From a virus (taxonomy: Duplodnaviria; Heunggongvirae; Uroviricota; Caudoviricetes), in the IMG/VR virus record IMGVR_UViG_2684623059_000003, positions 1-41,037 of that record: DNA of 41,037 bases, one strand, 5' to 3'. Made by a program: the position numbers. Each line of letters opens with the position of its first letter. Positions within the stretch are counted from its first letter, which is position 1. Positions 35,601 to 38,600 of the stretch are shown one piece after another.

Positions 35601-38600
35601 TCTGGCGCGCGTTGCTGGTTAGCCAGAAACACTGACTGATGAGGCTGACGATGGAATTTAAAGATTTACCGTCTGATGTACAGAAAACAGCAGCTCATAC
35701 ATTGCATTCTGTGCTGCGAGAAATCGGGAAAGATATTGCAAGCGAGCCAGCAAAAGATCTGGCCCGGAAAATCAAGACCGCTTTCGTTGAGCTTTATAAT
35801 GTTGGCACTGACTCTGAAACTGTCGAGACCAAGACCGTAAGTTCACCAATATTCTCACTTGAGCCAGGCGTATTAGCAGGTGAAATATGCACCGAGATTT
35901 CCAGCGAACTGCTTCCGGTAATACGAGAAGCAATTTGCCGTCGCGGTTTGGATGGAAGTTACGATCATGACGTCCTGCAAGTTCTCAGGACAATGGTGAC
36001 TTCACTGGGGATTTGATCCCTGCGTCCTCTAACCTTTTGATATAGCGGTCCTCCAAGAAGCGGTAAATTTTGTCGAAATCATCTTTCCCCTCTGATTTAT
36101 TCAGAGGATTACAGGACCCGTAAGTAGCGGCATACATTTCAACCGTTTTATCAAAAATATAAGAGACAAATTCTTCTTTAGTCATATAGATTTCCTTCTT
36201 GGTTATTCGGGATAAGAAGGATACCACCTCGCCTGACGTGGTTAAAAGCAGGCACACAACACGAAAGCGCACGGCGAAGTTCGTCTCACTGTACGGTGTC
36301 GTTAAATTTAATTCGACCGTGCGCTTCCGGTTGTGGCAACCCGCGAAATGGCGCGGCGGTAAGTATGGCGGGGTTATTCCTTCCCCGTTGAGGACACCGG
36401 GTTGTCAGGTTGACCATACGCTTAAGTGACAACCCCGCTGCAACGCCCTCTGTTATCAATTTTCTGGTGACGTTTGGCGGTATCAGTTTTACTCCGTGAC
36501 TGCTCTGCCGCCCTTTTTAAAGTGAATTTTGTGATGCGGTGAATGCGGCTAAGCGCACGCGGAACAGTTAAAACCAAAAACAGTGTTATGGGTGGATTCT
36601 CTGTATCCGGCGTTAATTGTTAACTGGTTAACGTCACCTGGAGGCACCAGGCACCGCATCACAAAATTCATTGTTGAGGACGCGATAATGGAAACGTTAT
36701 TACCAAACGTTAATACGTCTGAAGGTTGTTTTGAAATTGGTGTCAGAATCAGTAACTCTGCATTTACTGAAGATGCCATTAACAAGAGAAAACACGAACG
36801 GGAGTTATTAAATAAAATATGCATTCTTTCAATGCTGGCACGTTTACGCCCGATGCAAAAAGGATGCTGGCAATGAATACAGCAATTGCTCTCACTCTGA
36901 TAGTTTTTCTTAATACGGGCGAGCCTGTTGACCTGGTTATTGACATTTACGGTTCAATGAAAGAATGCACGGCTGCCGCAGCGGAACAGAAAACTCCCGG
37001 TAACTGTTATCCGGTCGATAAAGTTATTCATATGGACAATAACGAAATCCCGGCAGGACTTAAAACAGCACCGTAATTAATATCCGGTTTCATTTTTATA
37101 TGCCAGCAATGGCAGGGATTTGTTCACCCTTAAATCTGTAATGAGGTTAAAACAAAATGAGTAAAGTCTTTATTTGCGCCGCCATTCCGGACGAACAGGC
37201 AACAGCAGAAGGCGCTAAACCTGTGGCCACTGCCATTGAAGCAGGCGACGAACGCCGGGCAAGAGCCAAATTTAGCTGGTTATTTCTGGAACAATACCCG
37301 GAAGCTCAGGACTGTGCTTATAAATTTCTTGTCTGCGAGGATAAACCCGGCATGGCCCGCCCTGCTCTCGATTCCTGGGATTCCGAATATATGCAGGAAA
37401 ACCGCTGGAATGAGGAGTCGGCTTCCTTTGTTCCGGTCGACCCTGAACCGGATACAGAAACTGTTAACTTTAATCAGTTATCTGAAGACAAGCGGGCTGC
37501 TGTCCTTGTCAGATTCGGTACACATGAAAACATCACCGTGGATATGGTCATCAATGCAAGCGGGCTTCTCGGCGATGACGAGATGACGACTTTTGATGGA
37601 CACCTCACTGAAGCAATTATCAGGACTAAAGAAATTAACGCCATGTATCCTGAGCGTCAGACTGAGTACATCAACGACGCCAGATGTGATTTAAAACCAA
37701 CAGCCAAATGGCCCGACGTTCAGGCGTATTTTCTCGAACGTAAAAAACGCATGGAAAAGGAGCGCAAAGAAGGTGGAGCATATAATTCCGTCGTCGATCT
37801 TGCCCGCGCCAGAGTCAACCGGCAAGGCACTGAAAACTCTGCAGGAAAAACTGGCTCCGTAACTGCTGTCATTCGTCGCGCATACAGGCAGACATGGAAA
37901 ACACTGGATGAAGAACTGGCCTACGCTCTCTGGCCTGGTGATGTGGATGCCGGAAACATTGACGGCAGCATCCATCGCTGGGCAAAAAATGAAGTTATCG
38001 ACAACGACCGCGAAGACTGGAAGCGTATCTCGGCATCAATGCGCAAACAGCCTGATGCCCTTCGCTACGACCGCCAGACTATTTTTGGCCTTGTCCGTGA
38101 ACGTCCGATCGACATTCACAAAGACCCTGTGGCACTGAACAAATACATTACTGAATACCTGACGACAAAAGGCGTGTTTGAAGATGAAGAAACGGATCAG
38201 AGTCCTGCTGATGTTCTCCGGTCGTCAGCAACACAAACTGATGCAGTGGAAACAGAAGTATCTGGCACCCAAAAAAATGAAAGCGCACTGGAAGCTGAAC
38301 CATCTGTAGAGCGTGAAGGACCGTTCTACTTCCTCTTTACCGATAAGGACGGCGAAAAATACGGTCGCGCAAACAAACTGTCTGGTCTGAATAAGGCGCT
38401 GGCTGCCGGGGCTACTGAAGTCACCAAAGAAGAATACGTCGCCCGAAAAAATGGCACATACACAGGCTTACCGCAAAATACCAATGCCGCACAAAACTCT
38501 GAACAACCAGAGCCGGTAAAAGTTAACACGGTCGAAACAAATAAAAAAATGGAGACAGAAAATCTGCCTGATGCCGACAAAGTGCTTACTGCATCACGTG

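Follow-up and report, generated by a model that had tools for sequence, protein, structure and literature searches.

The window analysed here is the whole 41,037-nucleotide (nt) stretch of the viral record IMGVR_UViG_2684623059_000003. Between its ydf genes and dicB lies an untranslated block that contains DicF, a small RNA (sRNA), as well as, upstream of it, a conserved RNA domain of 115 nt that folds as a pseudoknot. This domain is a structural observation well supported by covariation, and the 137 nt at the 5' end of the 190-nt DicF precursor are more than a spacer. The block very probably forms the non-coding centre of an early-left dicBF operon of the Qin type, in what appears to be a complete lambdoid prophage.

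A first-pass annotation had placed DicF between the ydf genes and dicB and named a scan with the Rfam DicF model as a check. When run, the scan returns RF00039 at 36462-36513 (+), with 76.7 bits against a gathering cut-off of 48 (E = 2.3e-15), in an alignment over the full length of the model (positions 1-52 of 52). The Escherichia coli K-12 annotation has one more U at the 5' end, and counted in this way DicF is 53 nt long (36461-36513, +). It ends in an intrinsic terminator, which consists of a hairpin at 36475-36513 (folding free energy, ΔG, -15.9) and a U-tract at 36514-36518 (U5). In pairwise alignment, all 53 of the 53 nucleotides are identical to b1574 of the K-12 prophage Qin, including the seed and the terminator, and the placement is borne out. 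The same kind of alignment gives 100% identity to K-12 Qin across ~36310-36600 and a near-perfect match, with two mismatches, over ~36310-36700 (NC_000913). The near-identical block covers DicF and the entire spacer to dicB, and the sequence leftward of it diverges from K-12. Of 5426 complete E. coli genomes, 4419 contain sequences like 36230-36465, frequently more than once. Judging by the identity with K-12, an RNA of ~53 nt that binds Hfq and represses ftsZ would be expected to accumulate from this locus (PMC5069750, PMC10448788).

The surrounding genes follow the Qin-type order: a DicA-type helix-turn-helix (HTH) repressor gene (34836-35294; PF01381), a divergent P22-Cro-like gene (PF14549), a ydfA homologue (PF07151), DicF, dicB (PF05358) and ydfD (PF07358). 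Related genomes are annotated alike. Between the repressor gene and ydfA, a consensus scan picks out a promoter-like site, TTGACG-17-TAAATT (35382..35410, +), which we consider, with low confidence, a candidate for a DicA-repressed early-left promoter of the dicBp type. The ydfA homologue is the first gene of the operon (35487..35639, +; 4.3e-27) and is labelled DUF1391 family protein in related E. coli genomes. In place of K-12 ydfB/ydfC, the window has an open reading frame (ORF) of 125 amino acids (aa) (35639..36016, +; phrog_33007, 4.6e-82), which has no Pfam match and is labelled hypothetical in NZ_CP046396. A 66-aa ORF with an AAGGAA ribosome-binding site (35985..36185, -; phrog_34441, 2.3e-49; WP_000159335.1) is convergent with the 125-aa ORF and overlaps it by 32 nt. 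A distance of 15 nt separates the start codon of this minus-strand ORF (36185) from the left edge of the interval that the first-pass annotation had delimited. The promoter of the ORF must be in or near 36186-36300, and transcription from there would yield RNA antisense to the dicBF precursor, immediately upstream of the long hairpin that we call helix 1 below.

Downstream of DicF, dicB (36688..36876, +) encodes the 62-aa MinC-dependent division inhibitor, which matches its Pfam family over the full length (1.6e-36). It is followed by ydfD (DUF1482; 36873..37076, +; 7e-18) and an exonuclease gene of 819 aa (37157-39616; PF16473, 1.2e-65). The prophage appears complete: besides the exonuclease gene it has an integrase gene, Q and genes for lysis, head and tail. 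The dicB match supports the earlier proposal that DicF and DicB form a two-pronged division-inhibition module, a dual arrangement that is already established (PMC10448788; PMC5069750).

A pseudoknotted RNA domain upstream of DicF

The domain (36330..36444, +) scores 161.9 bits with our covariance model R1 and is the sole copy in the window. Its fold comprises five plus-strand helices. H0 (36330-37 / 36437-44) closes the domain and encloses H1 (36341-45 / 36352-56), Ha (36363-68 / 36414-19), Hb (36369-73 / 36383-87), which carries a CU-rich loop, and Hc (36399-407 / 36427-35), which crosses Ha. Ha encloses the 5' arm of Hc but not the 3' arm, which makes the fold a pseudoknot.

We derived the five helices from 33 diverse copies and assessed covariation on a model-aligned set of 73 distinct sequences, in which 95.8% of cells are paired. 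Changes on both sides occur in 12 of the 33 pairs, compared with 4.0 ± 1.4 after shuffling of the columns, where 0/500 reach the observed number, and with 2-6 when the pairing partners are slid. Hc alone has five pairs of this kind, for example in the Izhakiella copy (GGGUAACCA/UGGUUACCC). H0, H1 and Hc are also recovered by RNAalifold, which does not consider pseudoknots, from a structure-blind MAFFT alignment. Hb has been rebuilt from quite different sequences in different lineages, and its loop is CU-rich throughout (UUCCUU, CCUCC, CUCUUU). The unpaired segments CGGUAAG and CAGGUUGACCAU are invariant, an invariance that is partly imposed by the search patterns.

Scans of 2 kb around the region with Rfam 15 return only DicF and a sub-threshold STnc100 match downstream. 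The domain itself has no Rfam match at E <= 10, whether within the 2 kb or as the 146-nt domain alone, nor at gathering cut-offs. In the literature searched and in Rfam 15, no account of the domain as a structured RNA came up, although an earlier mention is possible.

Helix 1, a long interrupted hairpin of 24 base pairs (bp), lies on the 5' side of the domain (arms 36252-36278 / 36312-36337, +). The complementary segments that had been pointed out upstream of DicF, gcgcacggcgaagttcg (36268-36284) and cgaccgtgcgc (36316-36326), are indeed there and form the core of this longer helix. The fold of 36236-36346 has a ΔG of -42.6 kcal/mol (z = -3.4), equalled by 0 of 200 dinucleotide shuffles, and the entire stretch 36186-36530 is more stable than its shuffles (z = -3.2). 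The lower 8 bp of helix 1 use the 5' arm of H0. The same helix is predicted in most copies of the domain, with compensated upper parts in three loci (L162, L105, L106), and cdtI-type phages have an equivalent of different sequence.

A further helix lies between DicF and dicB (36524..36669, +). This helix 2 is a perfect 18-bp duplex of GAAUUUUGUGAUGCGGUG (36524-36541) with CACCGCAUCACAAAAUUC (36652-36669) around an enclosed element, and it stops 19 nt before the dicB AUG. The region 36511-36720 (+) aligns with the full STnc100 model (RF02076), long closing helix included, at 39.1 bits (local E = 1.7e-6). This falls short of the family's cut-off of 47, and the spacer element is probably only a distant relative of STnc100. 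Blast matches within it (~120-165 nt) stand alone in P7, in D6, in a Klebsiella phage and in certain chromosomes and plasmids of E. coli. The STnc100/PasD family is reported near Q and late-gene regions (bioRxiv 10.64898/2026.05.13.724894), whereas the window element is part of the early-left operon; we rejected the Pas sRNAs as the same element because of their location in the Q/late region.

The earlier interpretation was incomplete rather than wrong, as it overlooked the second RNase III-type helix downstream, the pseudoknotted domain and that domain's conservation beyond DicF. It had described 36200-36460 as non-coding on the plus strand, which holds, but the left edge from 36200 to ~36250 is outside the defined structures. 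It had also taken all 260 nt as a processing region. This applies to the ~85 nt of helix 1 (36252-36337), but the next 115 nt are a separate domain.

Distribution and recurring architecture

Distant blastn searches find 36330-36452 elsewhere without DicF. Phage cdtI, Stx2c-converting phages, PhiR47_1 and 2H10 carry the domain at ~89-91% identity, while P1, P7, SJ46, D6-type phages and hundreds of P1-like plasmids carry it at 77-82%. It is also present in Salmonella phage F1055 and one Salmonella plasmid. Pattern scans, run on IMG/VR and on a set with one genome for each GTDB species, gave further true copies, and these are confined to Enterobacterales (E. albertii, E. ruysiae, Shigella, Citrobacter, Trabulsiella, Erwinia tracheiphila, Izhakiella). 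The other pattern hits are chance matches, and the covariance model rejected all three that were searched. Beside the copies in Erwinia and Izhakiella, ARAGORN finds no transfer RNA (tRNA) gene.

In all 22 linker/terminator classes (133 loci), the domain is succeeded by an intrinsic terminator at a distance of 11-57 nt; the one exception is a decayed Shigella copy that also lacks the 5' arm of H0. These terminators are strong (ΔG -14 to -21, U5-U8). Most lambdoid classes share a common stem base, UUUGGCGG.../...CCGCC-U5, and differ in upper stems, loops and linkers; the terminator of P1 and P7 is unrelated to theirs. Among 19 divergent loci scanned, only one (L027 type) reaches the Rfam cut-off for DicF, and so the domain is more widely conserved than DicF.

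The 5' side varies as well. In P1 and P7, the C1-controlled promoter Pban takes the place of helix 1. The primary 5' end there is ~35 nt upstream of the domain, and a short 5' hairpin occupies the interval. In cdtI, PL is followed by a 210-nt leader, a long helix, the domain, a terminator (ΔG -21), a helix-closed element and the first ORF, which is not N-like. Here, the domain is found ~280 nt after PL, and in F1055, pPE4 and the Salmonella plasmid it comes after the repressor gene. The recurring unit is a defined 5' end (promoter or RNase III cut), the domain, a variable single-stranded linker and a terminator, and this unit corresponds to the 190-nt RNA of K-12.

Several variants of the unit occur. 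In a Shigella flexneri copy (L141:1443-1580 (-)) and a viral contig (L055:5210-5347 (-)), a deletion joins the upstream arm of helix 1 (…GCACACAAC) to H1 and removes the H0 5' arm. The DicF terminator of the Shigella copy is also degenerate, and both are probably decaying copies. In the Erwinia, Izhakiella, Trabulsiella and F1055 copies (L154:4666-4790, L157:2507-2620, L150 (-) downstream of 2033, L160:3136-3260), the terminator loop is enlarged and contains AGGAG-N8-AUG/GUG, from which a small ORF (MFYRGTA(L/F)FTQ..., MFCR...) runs through the 3' arm of the terminator and the U-tract. This layout, which is absent from the window, suggests that translation-coupled attenuation may operate in these copies.

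The element after the terminator in cdtI-type phages is closed by ACAAAACAGAGAAGAGCA.../...UGUUCUUCUCUGUUUUGU, just before an GGAGAAAC ribosome-binding site (L004:3170-3270; L154:4725-4790). The core of this element, GAGCAUC.CCGG.CGACGGGCUCAUAACCCAAUCCA.CCGG, recurs with 90-95% conservation in many phages without the domain (mEp460, SfII, ST64B, phiNP, Stx2a phages), and the 3' strand holds a boxA-like UGCUCUUCU. In several phages, modules of isrK and C4 antisense RNA (antirepressor control) reach Rfam cut-offs 0.3-2.4 kb from the domain (L086:1171-1359, L162:4591-5064, L055:4732-4920, L004:540-728); in L086, L055 and L162 they are on the same strand as the domain and downstream of it.

In the window itself, a sok antitoxin RNA (RF01794, 122.1 bits; 30170-30325, -) marks a hok/sok-type module in the early-right region, and two adjacent tRNA genes (26506-26577 and 26584-26656, -; Rfam tRNA, 64.9 and 73.8 bits) lie in the late-regulatory/lysis region. 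A simple terminator scan missed the DicF terminator, whose loop exceeds 8 nt, and is uninformative on further terminators in the operon.

Probable processing of the precursor and possible roles of the domain

The 190-nt DicF species of K-12 owes its 5' end to RNase III and the 53-nt species owes its own to RNase E, and no internal promoter was found (PMC10448788). Two 3' ends have been reported, one made by termination (53-nt form) and one by RNase III (72-nt form), according to Faubladier 1990 as cited in PMC5069750. Counting 190 nt back from the 3' end of DicF leads to 36324-36329, which is inside helix 1, in its 3' arm. The cut by RNase E that gives the 53-nt form its 5' end in K-12 (PMC10448788) coincides with the end of an A/U-rich single-stranded linker, GCCCUCUGUUAUCAAU (36445..36460, +), and the 3' end of the 72-nt form, taken from the cited account, counts to ~36532, in the middle of the 5' arm of helix 2. 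The three published ends thus fall on helix 1, the end of the linker and helix 2, and at the mapped ends both helices provide largely continuous double-stranded RNA of about two helical turns or more, as expected of RNase III substrates. Helix 1 is probably the RNase III substrate that gives the precursor its 5' end. Helix 2 is probably a second RNase III site, which would make the 3' end of the 72-nt form as that account describes it. The identities, the structures, their conservation and the places where the published ends map come from the present analysis, while for the window's own strain we infer the cleavages themselves from the K-12 experiments. The proposal of a structured precursor processed by RNases III and E as in Qin is in good agreement with the K-12 identity and with the position of the 190-nt 5' end inside helix 1.

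We propose the following sequence of events. A transcript from the DicA-repressed promoter would pass ydfA and the 125-aa ORF into the untranslated block of ~470 nt. RNase III would cleave helix 1 (36252-36337) and leave a 5' end at ~36324-36329. The ~190-nt product would consist of the domain (36330-36444), the 16-nt A/U-rich linker and DicF. RNase E cleavage at the end of the linker would then free the 53-nt DicF (36461-36513), the 3' end of which would come from its own intrinsic terminator. Polymerases that read through would make helix 2 (36524-36669). Its cleavage by RNase III would yield the 72-nt form, in keeping with the cited account, and part DicF from the messenger RNA (mRNA) of dicB, ydfD and the exonuclease gene. 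Termination at 36513-18 would compete with read-through into dicB. Together with Hfq, DicF would repress ftsZ and other mRNAs, while DicB would stop septation via MinC.

Within this scheme, we tentatively favour a cis role for the domain, as the precursor's folded body. Helix 1 would form first and sequester the 5' strand of H0, so that H0 would close only after the RNase III cut. The folded domain may then set the stability of the precursor and its maturation by RNase E, and/or the balance of termination and read-through at the adjacent terminator. Although helix 1 sequesters the 5' strand of H0, H0 covaries, which suggests that the closed domain is probably a feature of the processed RNA. 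Qin-, cdtI-, Salmonella-plasmid- and Erwinia-type copies all have a long helix with a 3' arm overlapping the H0 5' strand, some with compensatory changes in a common sequence and others built from a wholly different one, and wherever helix 1 or its equivalent is present, this overlap is found.

Several points weigh against this interpretation. The role as a scaffold in cis is a conjecture, and a 115-nt pseudoknot with invariant loop nucleotides exceeds the needs of processing by RNases III and E. Inspection brought up no alternative pairing of domain and terminator that is conserved. Support for Ha comes from only one covarying pair, and H0 is unclear in P1-type copies. The cleavage positions are carried over from K-12 and were counted from reported RNA lengths rather than exact nucleotides.

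A broader, somewhat unlikely possibility is that the domain represents an undescribed family of phage leader RNAs that control elongation in cis, a second put-like antiterminator or attenuator that is structurally unrelated to put. If so, lambdoid phages without N, and the ban operon of P1, would by this means pass the strong terminator that doubles as the 3' end of DicF-type sRNAs, and would couple sRNA output to early-gene expression.

In its stricter form, which we regard as unlikely, the domain would be a processive antiterminator in cis like put of HK022: the nascent fold would modify RNA polymerase, and a fraction of polymerases would pass the terminator(s) to express dicB, the exonuclease gene, xis and int (tRNAs and ban in P1). 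The location is that of put, as the domain always lies in a repressor-controlled early operon, preceding the first intrinsic terminator as well as most or all genes of the operon, and neither cdtI nor the window has an N-like gene at the usual position. The terminators are strong, yet the genes downstream need to be expressed, and the restriction to Enterobacterales would be expected of an RNA adapted to the host machine. However, the covariance model R1 gives no match, with filters off, at the putL sites of HK022 (placed via the residues given in PMC9378689) or HK639 (as annotated), and Smith-Waterman local alignments are no better than shuffles in five of six cases. We therefore rejected homology with put, bar one resemblance of 16 nt, that of HK639 putL AACGGCGCGACAGUAA to the Erwinia copy AACGGCGCGGCGGUAA, which was matched by 1/500 shuffles; with the other five comparisons at chance, we regard it as a lead and not as evidence of homology. 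The two sites (L163:34187-34312 (-) and L154:4546-4561) share AACGGCGCG(AC/GC)(A/G)GUAA over a GC-rich hairpin with an A-rich loop. A local hairpin GUC-AGGUU-GAC, which resembles the top of put stem II, was rejected since Izhakiella and other variants keep Hc instead. The topology also differs, with a five-helix pseudoknot against two stem-loops. In Qin-type copies, helix 1 would sequester the H0 5' strand during transcription while H0 covaries, which points to the processed rather than the nascent RNA, and the terminated transcript predominates in K-12 (PMC10448788).

It is improbable that the domain is instead the trans-acting module of a bipartite RNA of ~190 nt, which would bind or titrate a conserved host factor, or pair with Shine-Dalgarno sequences via the Hb loop, with the fast-evolving 3' linker and terminator supplying antisense specificity. 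Such a division of labour would fit the far stronger conservation of the domain relative to the 3' module, the latter scoring as DicF only in the L027-type locus among the 19 divergent loci scanned, and the CU-rich Hb loop does resemble an anti-Shine-Dalgarno sequence. Moreover, a discrete and stable 190-nt species accumulates in K-12 (PMC10448788), and P1 should produce such an RNA directly, from Pban to the terminator. However, no partner is known, the 53-nt form suffices for all published DicF phenotypes (PMC5069750), and a loop complementarity of ~5 nt is not significant.

Less probable still is an orphan riboswitch-like or factor-binding attenuator, in which a small molecule, or a conserved protein of host or phage, would bind the pseudoknotted fold and shift the balance between termination (sRNA) and read-through (dicB and the recombination genes). 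The build is aptamer-like: a covarying fold with a closing helix, a multi-helix pseudoknot core and invariant unpaired nucleotides, next to an intrinsic terminator that follows in every class, and there is no conserved reading frame. Against this, there is no match to a known Rfam riboswitch class at E <= 10, the spacing between domain and terminator ranges from 11 to 57 nt, and inspection found no conserved, mutually exclusive antiterminator pairing. A pairing of GGCGGUA in the domain with the 3' arm of the terminator, based on the shared GGCGG, was rejected for lack of covariation, because the domain shows no change to go with the GGUGG/CCACC of the L027 terminator or with the unrelated terminator of P1. 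A taxonomic range this narrow and a context confined to phages would also be unusual for a metabolite riboswitch.

Finally, the idea that the upstream region encodes a small plus-strand protein and that its structure is incidental can be dismissed: the only plus-strand ORF over the region (36199-36429, 76 aa) starts with TTG, its frame is broken by a +1-nt indel in 19 of the 73 distinct homologous copies and by in-frame stops in cdtI, P1, Erwinia and other types, and substitutions in the RNA helices are compensatory. The translation does match phrog_8854 (unknown function) at 1e-27, but with indels and stops in many of the 73 copies the frame is not kept among homologues as family membership would entail, and this PHROG family is best explained as spurious calls over RNA. 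Several phage records annotate hypothetical proteins over the domain, on either strand and in many cases opposite to this ORF; these are probably mis-annotated RNA.

Relation to known systems

DicF, the dicBF operon and maturation by RNases III and E are already known, and the present copy is a member by every feature tested. Since the DicF/DicB locus and its maturation have been worked out in K-12, the window adds one more copy of a locus found in most E. coli genomes. It shares with the Qin dicBF operon of K-12 (RF00039; PMC5069750, PMC10448788) the order of DicA-type repressor, ydfA, DicF, dicB and ydfD. In Qin, ydfB/ydfC lie between ydfA and the non-coding block, where the window has the 125-aa ORF and the convergent 66-aa ORF, and Qin is truncated and disrupted by IS2, whereas the window prophage looks complete.

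What is new is the domain, which is better conserved than DicF, has no Rfam family and heads repressor-controlled early operons of unrelated phage types. These types are Qin/mEp460-like, cdtI/Stx2c-like and P1/P7, and the domain is always closely followed by an intrinsic terminator. Should it control termination or the maturation of the sRNA, this would explain how early-left genes are expressed in these phages without N and why there is a stable 190-nt species. It would also flag the PHROG family and many hypothetical-protein calls as mis-annotated RNA.

In P1 and P7, the annotators noted a 'dicF-like region' after Pban (NC_005856) as a sequence similarity only. The same domain is found in this region, ~77-82% identical and with helices Ha, Hb and Hc altered in a compensatory way, and an intrinsic terminator comes after it. 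The region has no DicF, and its unrelated terminator module is below the DicF cut-off. A promoter ~35 nt upstream replaces the RNase III helix of the window, and the genes downstream are tRNAs, tciABC and ban.

The put elements of HK022 and HK639 (PMC9378689) resemble the domain in being structured RNAs in repressor-controlled early operons of lambdoid phages that have no N-like gene at the usual position, as seen here for cdtI and the window, and in lying upstream of terminators and being restricted to enteric hosts. However, put is ~70 nt long with two stem-loops, whereas the domain is a 115-nt pseudoknot with no detectable homology to it, for which antitermination is only putative. Compared with HK022 and HK639 put, the window holds one copy of the domain, in the left operon only.

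The proposed processing has parallels in the RNase III sites of the lambda PL transcript (N-leader hairpin, sib), in ManS (PMC11745405) and in CJnc190 (PMC8687705), where RNase III releases or regulates adjacent RNAs. Like helices 1 and 2, the lambda PL sites are long imperfect helices in an early-left polycistronic transcript, and the end of helix 2, 19 nt before the dicB start, is reminiscent of the lambda N-leader site that precedes N. Unlike in lambda PL, ManS and CJnc190, the two helices of the window bracket a non-coding RNA of ~200 nt that would be further matured by RNase E.

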